Origin: Escherichia phage PP01
Sequence record: NC_054930.1
Strand: one strand, 5' to 3'
Length of the DNA stretch: 64,000 nt
In this document: piece after piece, positions 50,770-60,085 of the stretch
Position numbering within the stretch: position 1 is the first letter of the stretch
Layout of the letters: the number at the start of each line of letters is the position of its first letter
Position numbers and translations under genes: made by a program
Notes under the pieces: generated by a model
The model's input: only the letters and a program-made list of their open reading frames with translations
Database searches by the model: none
What the model was told of the DNA's origin: nothing

Positions 50770-54910
<4,141 letters not shown>

Positions 54911-54940
54911 TTTGAATAAATATCCTTAAAAGGAGGGTCT

Positions 54941-55597
54941 ATGGCAGCACCTAGAATATCATTTTCGCCCTCTGATATTCTGTTGGGTGTTCTAGATCGC
55001 TTGTTCAAAGATAACGCTACCGGGAAGGTTCTTGCTTCCCGGGTAGCTGTCGTAATTCTTTTGTTTATAATGGCGATTGTTTGGTATAGGGGAGATAGTT
55101 TCTTTGAGTACTATAAGCAATCAAAGTATGAAACATACAGTGAAATTATTGAAAAGGAAAGAAATGCACGCTTTGAATCTGTCGCCCTGGAACAACTCCA
55201 GATAGTTCATATATCATCTGAGGCAGACTTTAGTGCGGTATATTCTTTCCGCCCTAAAAACTTAAACTATTTTGTTGATATTATAGCATATGAAGGAAAA
55301 TTACCTTCAACAATAAGCGAAAAATCACTTGGAGGATATCCTGTTGATAAAACTATGGATGAATATACAGTTCATTTAAATGGACGTCATTATTATTCCG
55401 ACTCAAAATTTGCTTTTTTACCAACTAAAAAGCCTACTCCCGAAATAAACTACATGTACAGTTGTCCATATTTCAATTTGGATAATATCTATGCTGGAAC
55501 AATAACTATGTACTGGTATAGAAATGATCATATAAGTAATGACCGCCTTGAATCAATATGTGCTCAGGCGGCCAGAATATTAGGAAGGGCTAAATAA
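54941..55597 (+). CDS. t: Holin T
   Basis: 218 aa as in T4 T; single N-terminal TM segment VAVVILLFIMAIVWY; SD AAGGAGGG. Confidence 0.85.
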   Translation: MAAPRISFSPSDILLGVLDRLFKDNATGKVLASRVAVVILLFIMAIVWYRGDSFFEYYKQSKYETYSEIIEKERNARFESVALEQLQIVHISSEADFSAVYSFRPKNLNYFVDIIAYEGKLPSTISEKSLGGYPVDKTMDEYTVHLNGRHYYSDSKFAFLPTKKPTPEINYMYSCPYFNLDNIYAGTITMYWYRNDHISNDRLESICAQAARILGRAK

Positions 55598-55870
55598 TTA
55601 TTTGTTCGTATACATCTCTAGATATCGATATACACCCTCAAAACCCTCGTTGAATTCGTCGATGAGGGTTTTCTTATCTTCTTGAGTTAATTCAGAAACA
55701 ATTTTACGGAATGAATTCTGATTTAATTTTCTACCTTCATGCGTTACTCCAATCTCATTCAGAAATGCAATAAAATTAGCACGATTTTCAACAATATCTT
55801 CTCTGGAAAATTTAATCAAAATAGACGCAACAGTAATAATTTCACGAACTGTATCAATATTTTTATTCAT
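55598..55870 (-). CDS. asiA: Anti-sigma70 factor AsiA
   Basis: 90 aa; sequence MNKNIDTVREIITVASILIKF... matches T4 AsiA as I recall it. Confidence 0.85.
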   Translation of the reverse strand: MNKNIDTVREIITVASILIKFSREDIVENRANFIAFLNEIGVTHEGRKLNQNSFRKIVSELTQEDKKTLIDEFNEGFEGVYRYLEMYTNK

Positions 55871-55882
55871 TAACTATACCAC

Positions 55883-56035
55883 TCAATTAGTTGACTTTAT
55901 TATAGTATCATCAGACGCTTGATTTGTAAACTGGTCTGTGTTATTTTCTTCAAAAATTTTTTCTACGAATTCCTTGAACGACTTACGTTCCTGAGCTACA
56001 TTATGCTCGATTACCTTTTCAAGATTATGACTCAT
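55883..56035 (-). CDS. Small hypothetical protein, 50 aa (not in ORF track)
   Basis: ATG overlaps the stop of the upstream ORF (ATGA). Confidence 0.4.
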   Translation of the reverse strand: MSHNLEKVIEHNVAQERKSFKEFVEKIFEENNTDQFTNQASDDTIIKSTN

Positions 56036-56310
56036 TCGAAATAATCTTCAATTTCATAATCATGGACATAAATCATTATAGTTTTTAATACATCATCAAT
56101 ACTTTTTCCTGGAGCTGGAATTACGTAAAAATACCCTGCTTTTGAGAGGTCTTTATAAGTTCCAATCAAGAAATCATTATTCTCAAGATGTAGTTCTTCA
56201 ACTAATTCATTAACAATTGAGTGGTATAAATTTGGTAGAAACTTATATAGCTTTTCTAGAATATCAATTTTGATTGTGTATTGAACCACGGACTGAGAAT
56301 CAATAATCAT
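56032..56310 (-). CDS. arn: Probable Arn (anti-restriction, DNA-mimic inhibitor of McrBC)
   Basis: 92 aa, strongly acidic with no Arg; position between asiA and motA as in T4. Confidence 0.55.
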   Translation of the reverse strand: MIIDSQSVVQYTIKIDILEKLYKFLPNLYHSIVNELVEELHLENNDFLIGTYKDLSKAGYFYVIPAPGKSIDDVLKTIMIYVHDYEIEDYFE

Positions 56311-56393
56311 AGACCTTCCCCTTATGTTTCTGTTTGCGATTAGATTCTTTAAACGCTTTCTTCTTATCCTTATGAACAGAAGCTTTATTAAAA

Positions 56394-56612
56394 TTATGTT
56401 TTGCGACTAAATTGTTCATAATGCTGAATTACCTCTCTTAAACATTTGCATGTGAATGAAAACTTTTTAGCTACACCACATTCAAATATATGTTCTCTTA
56501 AATCGTTTGTATCGGTATATCCCATCTCAACAATAAAATGCCGTATTAGATTTTTATCTTTATCATTGAGAGAATTAAAATAATCAGATTTTGAATTAAT
56601 TTCCCTGGCCAA
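56394..56612 (-). CDS. Hypothetical protein
   Basis: 72-aa ORF; probable TTG start with GAAGGTGA SD. Confidence 0.4.
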   Translation of the reverse strand: MAREINSKSDYFNSLNDKDKNLIRHFIVEMGYTDTNDLREHIFECGVAKKFSFTCKCLREVIQHYEQFSRKT

Positions 56613-56892
56613 ATTGAATCACCTTCAGTTGACGTTTTAGCTCTTTTATCATCTCTTCGTTCATCGCAATATAAAGATCGCGTAAAGCAGGTTTTAGCAT
56701 TCCATTTACTGGAGAACTAAATGGACATACATAATCTTTTCCTACAAGCTTTTTGGCGAATTCCATATCGCAGAACTTAAATCCCGGCTCATTGGTATAA
56801 ATTCCCCAATTAGTTGACATCATTTTATTGGCATATTCTAGTGCCTGGATTTGATTAGTAATTCCATCAATTTGAAACTTTTTAATATTCAT
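56596..56892 (-). CDS. Hypothetical protein
   Basis: 98-aa ORF with ATG start. Confidence 0.5.
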   Translation of the reverse strand: MNIKKFQIDGITNQIQALEYANKMMSTNWGIYTNEPGFKFCDMEFAKKLVGKDYVCPFSSPVNGMLKPALRDLYIAMNEEMIKELKRQLKVIQFGQGN

Positions 56893-57359
56893 TAGTAAAG
56901 GTCCTCGGAGTAAAGTTCTTTTTCACTACCACCACGTTCAATACGCACTTGTCCAGCGTAAGTTGCAATAATCATTGCTTCTTCACGTGTCCAGTAATTG
57001 CTATACTGGTCAATAAATCCTTGGTCTTCACCACAAACATGGTCTGATACAAGTTTATCACTTACCTGGTCAAGAACTTCAGCCATATCTTTAGAATAAT
57101 GACGAGCACCAGGAATAACCAGAGTCCCACCATCTTTTAACTTAAAGCGGTTGGCTGCACACACAATTCGACGTTGATATTTTTCATTATTGTTCCAATG
57201 AGCTACTTGCCAACAGATTTCAGGAACCTCTTCTAAAACATCCTCTTCCGTATATTCGGTGTAGTCGCCATAGGCCTGTAATTTAGCTGCTAGACTTTCT
57301 GGAGTTTCACGTAATAAAGCCAGGTCTAATAATTCAAGACGCTCTTTGAAGGTTTTCAT
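56892..57359 (-). CDS. Hypothetical protein
   Basis: 155-aa ORF with ATG start. Confidence 0.5.
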
Positions 57360-57507
57360 TTGGTTTCCTCAACACTTTTAATTTTTATAGCTTGTTTAGA
57401 ACTTTCAAAGCATTGACAATATACTCTTACCGCATCAAACTGGTTGGCCGCTTTAAGATGGACTACACCTTCGCCGTTATAAAATTCTACGACAATTTTA
57501 AATGTTT

Positions 57508-57837
57508 TCATTTAAACCATCCTTTAATACGTTGCCATAAAGTTTTCTGTTGAGCTTTGTTAACACCAATTGAGCGAATAACTGGTTGAGATTCATGGAA
57601 TTCTTTATAATCAGCAAGGTAAATTTCGTAAGCTGAATCCATAAAGGAACTTATAGCTGCCATGAAATTATTGCGAATACCTACTGGAGCATCTTTACTT
57701 TCACGAATAATCATGTATTTACCAGTCTTAATCTTTACAATAGTTCCAAGATAAGCCCCATGGTACCAGATGTCCCATCCCTCTTGAGTGGGTTCTGCAC
57801 AACGACGAAGTTCATTAACAATTTCTAACTTGTTCAT
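57508..57837 (-). CDS. Hypothetical protein (motA.1-like)
   Basis: 109-aa ORF immediately downstream of motA. Confidence 0.5.
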   Translation of the reverse strand: MNKLEIVNELRRCAEPTQEGWDIWYHGAYLGTIVKIKTGKYMIIRESKDAPVGIRNNFMAAISSFMDSAYEIYLADYKEFHESQPVIRSIGVNKAQQKTLWQRIKGWFK

Positions 57838-57847
57838 TATTTATTCC

Positions 57848-58483
57848 TCACAGTTCAGATGCTACAGTGATTACTGCTTCAATGTTTTCTGCCGAGCGTT
57901 TAATGTCAAGATACACATTACCGTTTTTAGCGATTTTACATGACATTCCGATATCAGTAAATTTCTGAATATGATGTTCCATCATTTTGTATCCAAAAAT
58001 TCGCATATTTCCATTATTGTTAATTTCAAAATTACGAATTCCGTGAGTGCGTTTTTCTAAAATGGCAAGATAATTACTACGATAAGTTTCAACCTTTTTA
58101 AGAACAAATCCATTTTCATCTAAAAGTTTTAACATGAGGTCTTTATCTTCTTCCATATCAGAAGTAATCTCACGAGCTTTACGAGTTGCTCGTTTTTTCA
58201 GCAGTTCCGGAGCATTTTCCTGTGCATATAAAGTTGCTGCATTTGAAATAATATCCTGAGCTTCACCAGTAATGATTAATCCATCACCAGATTTCTCCAC
58301 CAGGCCTTTTTTAATCAATACCCCAATATTACTATTAACTACTGCGTTACCTAAATCTGGATGCACCTCACGAACTTCTGCAGCTGTAATGAAATCTTTC
58401 TTAGCAATGGTAATTAAAATCGCAGCAGTTTTTTCATTCAGAACATCGTTAGAAGCTTTGATGATGTAAGTTACTTTAGACAT
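57848..58483 (-). CDS. motA: Middle-transcription activator MotA
   Basis: 211 aa as in T4 MotA; early promoter upstream. Confidence 0.85.
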   Translation of the reverse strand: MSKVTYIIKASNDVLNEKTAAILITIAKKDFITAAEVREVHPDLGNAVVNSNIGVLIKKGLVEKSGDGLIITGEAQDIISNAATLYAQENAPELLKKRATRKAREITSDMEEDKDLMLKLLDENGFVLKKVETYRSNYLAILEKRTHGIRNFEINNNGNMRIFGYKMMEHHIQKFTDIGMSCKIAKNGNVYLDIKRSAENIEAVITVASEL

Positions 58484-58524
58484 TTTCTAATCTCCGTAAT
58501 TCTGTATCAGTAGTTGATAGTTGT

Positions 58525-58553
58525 ATAGTACCACAGTATGCTTTGGTTGTAAA
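58525..58553 (-). promoter_or_regulatory. Early promoter for motA
   Basis: Minus strand GTTTACA-N17-TACTAT with upstream A/T-rich region. Confidence 0.55.
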
Positions 58554-58570
58554 CCGTTTTGTGAAAAAAA

Positions 58571-58605
58571 TTTTAAAATAAAAAAGGGAGAGCCGAGGCT
58601 CTCCC
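58571..58605 (-). terminator. Intrinsic terminator
   Basis: GGGAGAGCC-TC-GGCTCTCCC hairpin followed by TTTTTTATTTT on minus strand. Confidence 0.65.
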
Positions 58606-58610
58606 TAAAA

Positions 58611-58760
58611 TTACTGTTCAAACGCGATTACTATCATGATAACACGCTGAATACCAAAAGCAAGAAGACCTCCTGCTACGGCTGGAACAACACCTAAACC
58701 CGCCAGTAAAATGGCACCAGATACTAACGCAGCGCTTGTAATACCTACGAATGGACTCAT
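58611..58760 (-). CDS. Small hydrophobic membrane peptide, 49 aa (not in ORF track)
   Basis: ATG with GAGGAAA SD; Gly/Ala/Leu-rich TM-like sequence; terminator directly downstream. Confidence 0.5.
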   Translation of the reverse strand: MSPFVGITSAALVSGAILLAGLGVVPAVAGGLLAFGIQRVIMIVIAFEQ

Positions 58761-60085
58761 TTGATTTCCTCTAAATCTTTGGTGTATTCTGTAACTACAT
58801 CAGTAGTTTTCCAATATTCGTTTTCTTCTTTCTTAGCTTTAGCTTCTTCGGCAAGTTTCTTTGCTTCATCAGAAGTCATGTGAAAAATATTCATTCCAAC
58901 TAGTTTATCAACATAAGAAGAATACATGTCAATTTTAGAAAGTTCTTCGGTCAGTTCTTTGCGAGTTTTACCCTGTACAACGATTTCACCTGAAATTACT
59001 TTCTTAATGAAATGTGCCTTGGCAAAGGCTAAACGAAATGCTGATTCAGTTTCTTTGATTTTGTTATCAATTCGTTTTTGGACATAAGTTTTACGAACTT
59101 CAACGAAGTCTTTGATTAAATCGACTACGTTATCGTAAACTTGTAGTTTTCCTTTCTCATTAATAACCGTAATATTCTGAGAACGACGCTCAATCAACCC
59201 GAAGTCTTTCATAATTTTTGCATGACGTTCTTCTTCATTATCGCTCAAAGAATATTCTTTGCGGAATTTAACTTTGAATCCAAAACCATGCTCACCGCAA
59301 GCATCATCCCATGTAATGAAGCCTTTATCTTCAAGTGGGTCTAAGATTTTACTCACATAAGTTTCACGATCATACTTATACGGAATCTCAGTGATATGCA
59401 TTTGAGTTCGTGAAGTAAACTTATATGTTCCACGAATTTCATATTGCCCATCAATCTCAACGACTTCACCACGAAATTCTGGGAATTCTACCTTCGGTTT
59501 AGTTACTTTCTTTCCTTGAAGAGCTTGCAGTACAGCTTTCTTAACAGAAGAAACACTATGAGGAAGAATGTAAGTTGCATAACCAGTTGCAATACCGGAA
59601 ACGCCATTAAGAAGAACGGTAGGAATAATAGGCAAATAGAAAGCAGGCGGAATGTGTTCTTTATCTTGATGTACCGGAGCATATTCAGTATCTTTATATA
59701 CGTTATAGAAATTTTTACTTACACGAGCAAAAATATAACGACTTGCCGCGGCCTTTTGAACAGTACGAGAACCAAAGTTTCCTTGGCCATCTAACAAAGG
59801 AAAGTTATTATTCCAAGTGTTAGCCATCAAAGCACCTGCATCTTGTGCAGAGTTTTCGCCATGGTGATATCCAAGGTCCGCTACACCACCTGCAATAGAA
59901 GCGAGTTTGTGAAACTTATCTTTATTTCCTCGTGCCAAATCAAGAGCTCGAGCAATAACAAATCGTTGAACTGGCTTAAATCCATCAATCATATTTGGAA
60001 TGGCACGATTTTCAACCGTGTACATAGCATAAGCCAATGCTTCATTATCAATGATACTTTTTAAATCGCGATTATTCAGTTGCAT
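58757..60085 (-). CDS. 52: DNA topoisomerase II medium subunit gp52
   Basis: 442 aa as in T4 gp52; synteny. Confidence 0.9.
   Translation of the reverse strand: MQLNNRDLKSIIDNEALAYAMYTVENRAIPNMIDGFKPVQRFVIARALDLARGNKDKFHKLASIAGGVADLGYHHGENSAQDAGALMANTWNNNFPLLDGQGNFGSRTVQKAAASRYIFARVSKNFYNVYKDTEYAPVHQDKEHIPPAFYLPIIPTVLLNGVSGIATGYATYILPHSVSSVKKAVLQALQGKKVTKPKVEFPEFRGEVVEIDGQYEIRGTYKFTSRTQMHITEIPYKYDRETYVSKILDPLEDKGFITWDDACGEHGFGFKVKFRKEYSLSDNEEERHAKIMKDFGLIERRSQNITVINEKGKLQVYDNVVDLIKDFVEVRKTYVQKRIDNKIKETESAFRLAFAKAHFIKKVISGEIVVQGKTRKELTEELSKIDMYSSYVDKLVGMNIFHMTSDEAKKLAEEAKAKKEENEYWKTTDVVTEYTKDLEEIK

Follow-up and report, generated by a model that had tools for sequence, protein, structure and literature searches.

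Which genes fill the interval between asiA and motA in the 64,000-nucleotide stretch of phage DNA analysed here (the window), and what might they do for the phage? A sequence-only reading had listed five open reading frames (ORFs) of 50, 92, 72, 98 and 155 aa in this interval, and all five are confirmed on the minus strand at the positions given below. The listed ORFs are real but the list is incomplete: ORFs of 39, 51 and 109 aa had been omitted, and the 51- and 109-aa ORFs sit between the 155-aa ORF and motA, so that the listed set leaves the asiA–motA interval unfilled. Read from motA to asiA, the interval holds eight small co-directional genes (arn.4, a 51-aa ORF, arn.3, arn.2, arn.1, a 39-aa DUF7230 gene, arn and asiA.1), which lie on the minus strand and are tightly packed, with overlapping stop and start codons. 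The downstream flank is asiA, the gene for the anti-sigma-70 factor (55598..55870, minus strand; Pfam AsiA, E 1e-42; annotated as asiA in T4 and RB32), and the upstream flank is motA, the gene for the activator of middle transcription (57848..58483, minus strand; Pfam MotA_activ and MotCF). The account preferred here, to which as a whole we give a probability of about 85%, is that this is a Tequatrovirus block with an Arn protein, that arn.1 encodes about 72 aa from a TTG codon and contains both an ArcZ-complementary site and a GCAUU motif, that the block is probably regulated as in T2, that Arn.1 would be a helix-turn-helix (HTH) protein and that Arn.3 may be an enzyme or ligand-binding module.

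In nucleotide comparison the block is 100% identical to that of Shigella phage ESh31, a Tequatrovirus, and 97–98% identical to those of RB32, RB33 and others. It is present in 832 phage records, 475 of which cover at least 80% of the 3-kb query, and its gene order is that of T4 and RB32. On these comparisons this is the standard asiA–motA early/middle gene block of a Tequatrovirus, already known and ordinary. A sigma-70-type promoter-like site upstream of motA (TTTACA-17-TACTAT with TG; 58525..58553, minus strand), recognized by consensus match only, is a candidate start of the co-directional transcript; the sigma-70 promoter scan as a whole performed no better than shuffles. The MotA-box middle promoter pattern had zero matches on the minus strand of 55500–58800, and an Rfam scan of 55000–59000 returned no credible RNA family.

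Published work describes Arn as a dimeric, acidic protein that mimics DNA and inhibits McrBC, a type IV restriction enzyme that would otherwise cut hydroxymethylcytosine DNA. The 92-aa ORF (arn; 56032..56310, minus strand) had been proposed to encode this inhibitor, and alignment bears the proposal out: the product shares 90 of its 92 residues with chain 3WX4_A of the T4 Arn structure (E 1.1e-55), it scores 181.2 bits on Pfam DM_Arn (PF22134; cut-off 26) and the gene occupies the T4 position between asiA.1 and arn.1, with neighbours as in T4 and RB32. Its description as strongly acidic and free of arginine also holds (16 D+E, 7 K, 0 R, pI 4.55), and a strong Shine–Dalgarno (SD) sequence, AAGGGGAAGG, lies upstream. 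By these measures the 92-aa protein is Arn. Its acidic surface is consistent with DNA mimicry, on the assumption that at 98% identity it keeps the three-dimensional charge pattern of the T4 structure, and inhibition of McrBC would carry over from T4. An Arn-only scan of IMG/VR found just seven near-identical loci. The allele here has I13 and S70 where T4 has F13 and N70. In T4 Arn, N70S is reported to abolish inhibition of the PUA-Cal-HAD defence system, and T2 Arn also to have Ser70 (2026 preprint, PMC12871103); given S70, the allele here is predicted to lack this second activity and to keep the McrBC-directed one.

The four neighbours that had been described as unassigned and without recognizable motifs are the known T4 genes asiA.1, arn.1, arn.2 and arn.3; what stands of that description is that they give no significant motif matches. 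Local Pfam, NCBIfam and PDB sequence searches returned nothing significant for Arn.1, Arn.2, Arn.3, asiA.1 and the 51- and 109-aa ORFs, and weak matches to Prok-E2_B (0.014), primase large subunit (0.29) and Pumilio (0.056) were treated as noise. By family, arn.1, arn.2 and arn.3 belong to Pfam Phage_T4_Y16B, Phage_T4_Y16C and T4_Y16D. The asiA.1 gene (55883..56035, minus strand; PHROG 3762, E 2.6e-36) encodes a 50-aa acidic protein, lies at the same position as T4 asiA.1 and has an ATG that overlaps the arn stop codon (ATGA); the genes at its position in RB69 and KPN6 share with it only an N-terminal MSHNLExV motif. The 98-aa arn.2 (56596..56892, minus strand; Phage_T4_Y16C; PHROG 1844, E 2e-51) has 23 close homologues and diverged ones in RB69, CC31 and KPN6, and is absent in PEi20 and kv_tblp5. 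Between arn and arn.1, overlapping them by 11 and 26 nt, respectively, the gene for a 39-aa basic microprotein (56300..56419, minus strand; pI 10.2) matches Pfam DUF7230 (44.9 bits versus a cut-off of 27) and PHROG 1359 (E 5e-23). It is annotated in RB32, CC31, KPN6 and PEi20 and left out of the T4 and ESh31 records; in T4 it is intact and identical, and MNNxVAKxDFNK...RKQKHKGK is conserved across five genera. The 51-aa ORF (57356..57511, minus strand; PHROG 15636, E 1.9e-40) is found in ESh31, RB32 and kv_tblp5 and is absent in T4, and the 109-aa ORF (57508..57837, minus strand) is a full-length homologue of arn.4 (Pfam Phage_T4_Y16F; PHROG 1594; arn.4 of RB32 and RB69).

The T4 reference (NC_000866) and the ESh31 record annotate arn.1 as 132 nt (43 aa). 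The gene preferred here has 72 codons (56394..56612, minus strand) and starts at TTG 56612–56610, with the SD sequence AGGTGAT (56618..56624, minus strand; read from sequence) 5 nt upstream. The position of this TTG is ATG in RB69, CC31, PEi20 and kv_tblp5 and GTG in KPN6. TTG is a weak and rare start codon, which counts against a 72-aa product. Neither proteomic nor ribosome-profiling support for the long form was found. Of 806 phage records, 801 align by tblastn from residues 1–3 to residues 65–72, with identities as low as 47%; PHROG 4452 matches residues 1–72 (E 4.9e-39), and the RB69 record already has a 72-aa arn.1. Outside Tequatrovirus and Mosigvirus, all lineages have Leu or Val in place of the T4-annotated start Met (“Met30”). 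Codons 4–29 resemble the C-terminal part of the gene both in dN/dS (0.14–0.66) and in third-position excess (203 vs 133 and 105), and the N-terminal codons are under purifying selection. On this comparative evidence, a product of about 72 aa from TTG 56612, rather than 43 aa, is better supported than the T4 annotation.

The length of arn.1 bears on how the block may be regulated. For T2, pairing of ArcZ/Hfq at the arn.2/arn.1 junction is reported to make the transcript more stable against RNase E and to increase Arn levels; 70 nt are treated there as intergenic, and GCAUU is proposed as an RNase E site (bioRxiv 10.64898/2026.06.19.733364). In the DNA studied here, CCAGGGAAAT, the perfect complement of the ArcZ seed AUUUCCCUGG, occurs once in the window (0.12 expected), at 56599..56608 on the minus strand, in the last codons of arn.2 (+285 to +294) and at nt +4 to +13 of arn.1; the ArcZ sequence was confirmed by Rfam RF00081 (117.6 bits) on an E. 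coli locus. The GCAUU motif (56537..56541, minus strand) lies within arn.1 codons 24–26 (R-H-F), 11 nt upstream of ATG 56525–56523 and 57 nt from the ArcZ site. This geometry (297-nt arn.2, 70 nt, 11 nt, 57 nt) matches the T2 report exactly. The ArcZ site is absent from RB69, CC31, KPN6, PEi20 and kv_tblp5. A duplex-energy scan ranked it second, and 39 of 100 shuffled seeds did as well; such energies are not discriminating, and what ties ArcZ to the block is the exact 10-mer together with the T2 experiments. By analogy with T2, the block is probably under ArcZ regulation of the same type, in which ArcZ/Hfq pairing at the arn.2/arn.1 junction would stabilise the transcript. As a result of the 72-aa reading, the ArcZ site covers arn.1 codons 2–5 and GCAUU falls inside the gene, and the GCAUU-to-GCAGG mutation would also change Arn.1 (H25Q and F26V, F26 being invariant). 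Pairing of an sRNA on codons 2–5 would normally repress translation. It is not obvious how such repression would fit with the positive effect described in T2.

Arn.1 has the conserved core of Phage_T4_Y16B, and its homologues carry PF26827. An alignment of 11 sequences from T4-like and T5-like phages (34–97% identity) has 16 invariant columns: F12, K20, I23, F26, I27, G31, Y32, L38, H41, E44, C45, F51, C57, L58, I62 and H64. Paired cysteines (FECG...FTCKC) had been pointed out earlier; C45, C55 and C57 are indeed present, but only two of them, C45 and C57, are invariant; the C55 of ‘CKC’ varies, and the pairing is to that extent not conserved. H64 is invariant in the 11 aligned sequences and is Tyr in 1 of 21 distinct sequences (L033), and H41/C45/C57/H64 make up a conserved candidate ligand set. 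The AF2 model of the 72-aa protein is confident and helical, and its predicted fold appears homeodomain-like; none of the 11 members matches an HTH family in Pfam at E<=1, and a PDB profile search with Arn.1 gave nothing significant. From the model we infer a homeodomain-like HTH protein; it would be small, possibly metal-stabilised via H41/C45/C57/H64, and would bind nucleic acid or a host protein.

The 155-aa product of arn.3 (56892..57359, minus strand; PHROG 839, E 1.3e-71) has a variable helical N-terminus and a conserved T4_Y16D core (about residues 46–155) ending SEDLY. The features of T4_Y16D (PF26092) are all found in it, namely a C-terminal core of ~95–110 residues with RH, QGFxD, R, Q and a terminal LxSExLY, and PF26092 is carried by its homologues and by the RB33 gene of identical length. 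R86-H87, Q113-G-F-x-D117, R125, Q137 and the C-terminal L-x-S-E-x-L-Y are invariant; given these enzyme-like polar residues, the domain could be a small enzyme or a module that binds a ligand, perhaps for host takeover or counter-defence. The model has a pLDDT of 87 and no solved structural relative; structural matches occur in many phage lineages, including in large polyvalent proteins, and the domain is represented by 2,816 50%-identity clusters at E<=1e-3. In longer homologues, of which 8–10 were scanned with Pfam and PHROG, the core was fused only to families of unknown function. A bacterial genome scan with the Arn.3 alignment gave two MAG matches only, and the gene neighbourhood of a distant homologue, on metagenomic contigs of phage size (111 and 211 kb), was uninformative.

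Several other readings have to be weighed against this account. The flanking ORFs are short, have no known function and are annotated inconsistently by gene callers, as chance open frames in AT-rich DNA might be; however, each matches a phage protein family (E 1e-23 to 1e-71), they are conserved as proteins across genera, they have SD sequences and coupled stop/start overlaps, and arn.4-through-arn RNA is abundant in T2 infection (bioRxiv 10.64898/2026.06.19.733364). Chance is already refuted by the conservation data, and we give it virtually no weight. It is also improbable, to a degree that leaves little room for it, that the T4 reference is right and that arn.1 encodes 43 aa from ATG 56525, with 56526–56595 (70 nt) a non-coding intergenic regulatory segment conserved via the RNase E site and RNA structure. 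In CC31, KPN6, PEi20, kv_tblp5, Kamaji and IMG/VR relatives, all of which start upstream, Leu or Val replaces the internal Met, and the upstream 26 codons have protein-level conservation (KSDYFNSLN, IRHFIVE), with change biased to synonymous, whereas stop codons crowd the other two frames across them. As a start codon, ATG is better than TTG, but ATG 56525 is without a properly spaced SD sequence and TTG has AGGTGAT at 5 nt; residues 1–29 belong to one confidently modelled domain in the AF2 model. The short form does agree with the 132-nt annotations in T4 NC_000866 and ESh31, with PHROG 6212 (a 43-aa family), with a gene caller’s 43-aa call in RB33 and with the T2 preprint, which reads the 70 nt as intergenic and in which mutation of GCAUU gave the predicted phenotype (bioRxiv 10.64898/2026.06.19.733364).

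Other alternatives concern function. Arn.1 could be primarily zinc-binding, with H41, C45, C57 and H64 forming a site that bridges helices 3 and 4, and could act via this metal site rather than through HTH-type DNA binding. All four residues are among the 16 invariant columns of the 11-sequence alignment, and spacings of i, i+4 and i, i+7 would suit positions on single faces of the two predicted helices; yet C55 of the ‘CKC’ pair is not conserved, zinc-finger families gave zero matches for Arn.1 in Pfam or by PDB profile, and the idea is weakened because H64 is Tyr in one homologue (L033); we regard it as doubtful. That asiA.1, arn.1, arn.2 and arn.3 work together with Arn as a single anti-restriction module is distinctly unlikely. 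The genes are co-transcribed and translationally coupled with arn, and the T2 preprint proposes that arn-neighbour genes may also act in counter-defence (bioRxiv 10.64898/2026.06.19.733364), but the genes come and go independently of one another (PEi20 and kv_tblp5 lack arn.2 and retain arn.1, arn.3 and an Arn-like gene), asiA.1 is found in Tequatrovirus only, the 2,816 clusters with the Arn.3 domain come from unrelated phages, and a T5-like phage has an Arn.1 domain in a region without annotated arn. The label ‘anti-restriction nuclease’ on several records and on PHROG 4452 looks like a spread of arn.N gene names, and no evidence for it was found. Only tentatively, and at well below even odds, might the parts be combined further: in T4/T2-type phages arn.1 would encode a 72-aa homeodomain-like protein (possibly metal-stabilised), its TTG initiation region would be the true ArcZ target, ArcZ would act on arn.1 translation or arn.2 coupling and only thereby on the RNase E sensitivity of a site within arn.1, and Arn.3 would be a new class of phage host-takeover/counter-defence enzyme.

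The phage is nearly identical to sequenced Tequatroviruses, and under the preferred account, an ordinary Tequatrovirus block with a 72-aa arn.1 and probably T2-like regulation, Arn and the surrounding conserved hypothetical genes are a rediscovery. In the T4 reference, and in many annotations derived from it, arn.1 is cut to 43 aa or missing, and the DUF7230 gene is missing too. The corrected arn.1 would alter the reading of the T2 sRNA/RNase E mechanism: the ‘intergenic’ segment would be coding, the ArcZ site would overlap the start codon and the diagnostic mutation would alter the protein. The Arn.3 core, one of the larger phage protein families yet to be characterised, would be a sensible choice for work on structure and function.

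Compared with known systems, asiA.1 and arn.1–arn.4 are orthologues of the T4 genes (NC_000866), alike in order and orientation and with 92–99% protein identity. The differences are that arn.1 is best read here as 72 rather than 43 aa, that the 39-aa DUF7230 gene is intact but unannotated in T4, that arn.4 is full-length here (109 aa) where T4 has ATA for ATG, and that an extra 51-aa ORF is present. Arn shares with T4 Arn (3WX4, PF22134) a length of 92 aa, an acidic, arginine-free composition and the slot between asiA.1 and arn.1, and differs by F13I and N70S. T7 Ocr and other phage DNA-mimic anti-restriction proteins, which are small and acidic, imitate DNA and titrate restriction enzymes, offer a functional analogy for Arn; Ocr is unrelated to it in sequence and fold, and targets type I R-M and BREX, whereas Arn targets modification-dependent McrBC. 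Among the closest known systems for Arn.1 are homeodomain-like, Myb and transposase N-terminal HTH domains (IS21 IstA, 8B4H; Sleeping Beauty RED, 5UNK; ARR1, 8XAS), from which it differs in the two extra short strands of its model, in a conserved H/C/C/H set that is atypical of homeodomain-like HTH domains, and in standing outside their sequence families (Pfam and PDB profile negative). The T2 arn operon agrees in its ArcZ-complementary 10-mer (arn.2 +285 to +294), in the 70-nt spacing and in a GCAUU that precedes the annotated arn.1 ATG by 11 nt; the difference is one of reading, in that its ‘intergenic region’ would be the 5' part of arn.1 and the ArcZ site would overlap the arn.1 initiation region.

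The gene block between asiA (55598-55870) and motA (57848-58483), two flanking genes verified by Pfam, is a T4-type block that was already known, found again here. The sequence-only reading placed five minus-strand ORFs here, and an ORF list for 54500-59000 recovers all of them with exactly the same boundaries. Four had been called unassigned; they are present but already named on the gene maps annotated for RB32, ESh31 and T4, as asiA.1 (55883-56035, 50 aa), arn.1 (56394-56612, 72 aa, TTG start), arn.2 (56596-56892, 98 aa) and arn.3 (56892-57359, 155 aa; 152 in T4), and the fifth is arn (56032-56310, 92 aa) on the same maps. The genes are joined by ATGA or TAATG overlaps, with Shine-Dalgarno (SD) sequences at most of them. 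A 3-kb query of the region matched 832 phage records, 475 of which covered at least 80% of it; Shigella phage ESh31 is 100% identical over this region, and RB32, RB33 and many other Tequatroviruses are 97-98% identical. Chance ORFs are ruled out, and these are conserved, real genes. Still of use are a corrected gene model for arn.1 and its consequences for the mechanism of the host sRNA ArcZ, an overlooked microprotein gene, and the large, uncharacterised Arn.3 domain family.

The arn.1 product is best read, from comparative sequence evidence and a structure model, as about 72 aa long and not 43. Annotations of T4 and ESh31 include only the last 43 codons, from an ATG at 56525, RB69 is annotated with 72 aa, and several other genomes have no arn.1 annotation. 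With the 72-aa query, tblastn aligned at least 80% of the length in 801 of 806 phage records, at identities down to 47%. The window TTG, right where the upstream gene ends, is ATG in RB69, CC31, PEi20 and kv_tblp5 and GTG in KPN6. The residue matching the annotated T4 start Met was compared in 20 distinct sequences, among them IMG/VR contigs and one from a T5-like Serratia phage; outside Tequatrovirus and Mosigvirus, every lineage has Leu or Val there. Codons 4-29 have dN/dS values of 0.14-0.66 (where calculable). As in the C-terminal part, their differences fall mainly at third positions (203 vs 133 and 105). The remaining two frames contain many stop codons. AGGTGAT lies 5 nt ahead of the TTG; a properly spaced SD sequence is missing at ATG 56525. 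The confident AlphaFold2 model of the 72-aa protein (pLDDT 89.9; 89-94 over the first 30 residues) predicts four helices plus two short strands, residues 3-5 and residues 51-53. A 43-aa form would be without the first strand and helices 1-2. Paired cysteines had been noted in this ORF; C45 and C57 are indeed invariant, but C55 of the CKC motif is not conserved. H41 is also invariant and H64 is present in all sequences but one, and a metal site is possible. A 94-aa protein with an Arn.1 domain (34% identity) occurs at 1414-1698 in the T5-like Serratia phage Kamaji (Demerecviridae); it keeps the H/C/C/H residues and has a 3-residue insertion. The Arn.1 domain therefore also occurs outside T4-like phages and outside the arn block.

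In T2, RIL-seq and genetics show that ArcZ pairs with the arn.2 3' end at +285 to +294 (June 2026 preprint, bioRxiv 10.64898/2026.06.19.733364), and the site geometry in T2 is that of the window. The 10-mer CCAGGGAAAT at 56599-56608 is the sole copy in 64 kb (0.12 expected), and the GCAUU motif lies at 56537-56541. The 70-nt ArcZ sequence used was confirmed by its presence in 5,417 of 5,426 E. coli genomes, with an Rfam ArcZ call there (117.6 bits). If arn.1 encodes 72 aa, what the preprint calls the "intergenic region" would belong to arn.1 as its 5' portion. The ArcZ site would then be nt +4 to +13 of arn.1, inside the ribosome initiation footprint, and a GCAUU-to-GCAGG mutation would alter Arn.1 too, through H25Q and through F26V at an invariant residue. 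This reading is compatible with the preprint data, but RNA and protein effects need separating controls. A duplex-energy scan did not set the site apart from shuffled seeds. RB69, CC31, KPN6, PEi20 and kv_tblp5 lack the 10-mer, so any ArcZ link appears limited to the T4/T2 group.

Three further ORFs had been passed over. A lysine-rich 39-aa DUF7230 protein (Pfam; MNNLVAKHNFNK...RKQKHKGK, pI 10.2) is encoded at 56300-56419 on the minus strand, overlapping arn.1 at its stop and arn at its start. The protein is kept across five genera (Tequatrovirus, Mosigvirus, Karamvirus, Jiaodavirus and Kanagawavirus), and its gene is unannotated in ESh31 and in the T4 reference, where the sequence is intact and identical. 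The other two, of 51 and 109 aa, lie between arn.3 and motA. The 51-aa ORF (57356-57511, minus strand, PHROG 15636), between arn.4 and arn.3, occurs in ESh31, RB32 and Klebsiella phage kv_tblp5 but not in T4. The ATG of the 109-aa arn.4 gene (57835-57837), shared with RB32, RB69 and others, is ATA in T4, where the SD sequence TGAGGAA is unchanged. In T4, the annotation of arn.4 as 68 aa and the 133 nt left "intergenic" ahead of motA therefore look like products of a start-codon change or of a non-canonical start. For arn.2 (Phage_T4_Y16C), diverged homologues occur in RB69, CC31 and KPN6; PEi20 and kv_tblp5 lack the gene, and sequence searches gave no relative with a solved structure. asiA.1 is limited to Tequatrovirus, save for an N-terminal MSHNLExV motif shared beyond the genus.

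Arn.3 belongs to Pfam family T4_Y16D. In this family the N-terminus is variable and the C-terminal core, always at the protein end, is conserved. R86-H87, Q113-G-F-x-D117, R125, Q137 and a terminal L-x-S-E-x-L-Y are invariant or nearly so among 48 close members and 147 distant ones. This pattern may be enzyme-like or ligand-binding. A profile search recovered 943 50%-identity clusters at E<=1e-10, rising to 2,816 at the looser E<=1e-3. By Foldseek against viral models, many unrelated phages carry the domain, which also lies within "large polyvalent" proteins; no known domain was found in the regions fused to it, and bacterial loci comprise two MAG loci only. The name "anti-restriction nuclease" is given to arn.1, arn.2 and arn.3 in many records, in UniRef names and by PHROG 4452; no support for this label on these genes was found, and it appears to have propagated from the locus names arn.N.

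A strong terminator-like hairpin (58585-58606, minus strand) precedes a promoter-like site with an extended -10 (58525-58553, minus strand) just upstream of motA. A second site of identical type (TTTACA-17-TACTAT with TG) lies at 55902-55930 on the minus strand, within the asiA.1 3' end and upstream of asiA. A search of the minus strand over 55500-58800 gave no match to the MotA-box middle promoter pattern. Upstream of holin t, 54119-54910 on the plus strand encodes a glycine-rich, T2-type gp38 adhesin of about 259-263 aa, and a 183-aa T4-type gp38 assembly factor is rejected there. Pfam Gp38_N/GP38 occurs in related contigs. Receptor recognition is T2-like in a phage whose arn block is T4-like.

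The proposed identity of the 92-aa ORF as Arn holds. It is acidic and arginine-free as described (16 acidic residues, 7 lysines, pI 4.55), matches Pfam DM_Arn at 181 bits, and aligns with the solved T4 Arn chain 3WX4_A at 90/92 identical residues (E 1e-55). It differs from T4 Arn only by F13I and N70S, with I13 and S70 in the window. All seven IMG/VR relatives are 99-100% identical to it, and RB32 Arn likewise carries Ser70. Arn is described as an inhibitor of McrBC, and of H-NS as well, that mimics DNA (Ho et al. 2014, as cited in PMC12871103). T4 Arn reportedly also inhibits a PUA-Cal-HAD defence system, T2 Arn (Ser70) does not, and N70S removes the activity from T4 Arn (2026 preprint, PMC12871103). 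The window Arn shares Ser70 with T2 Arn, and by analogy this allele would lack PUA-Cal-HAD inhibition.
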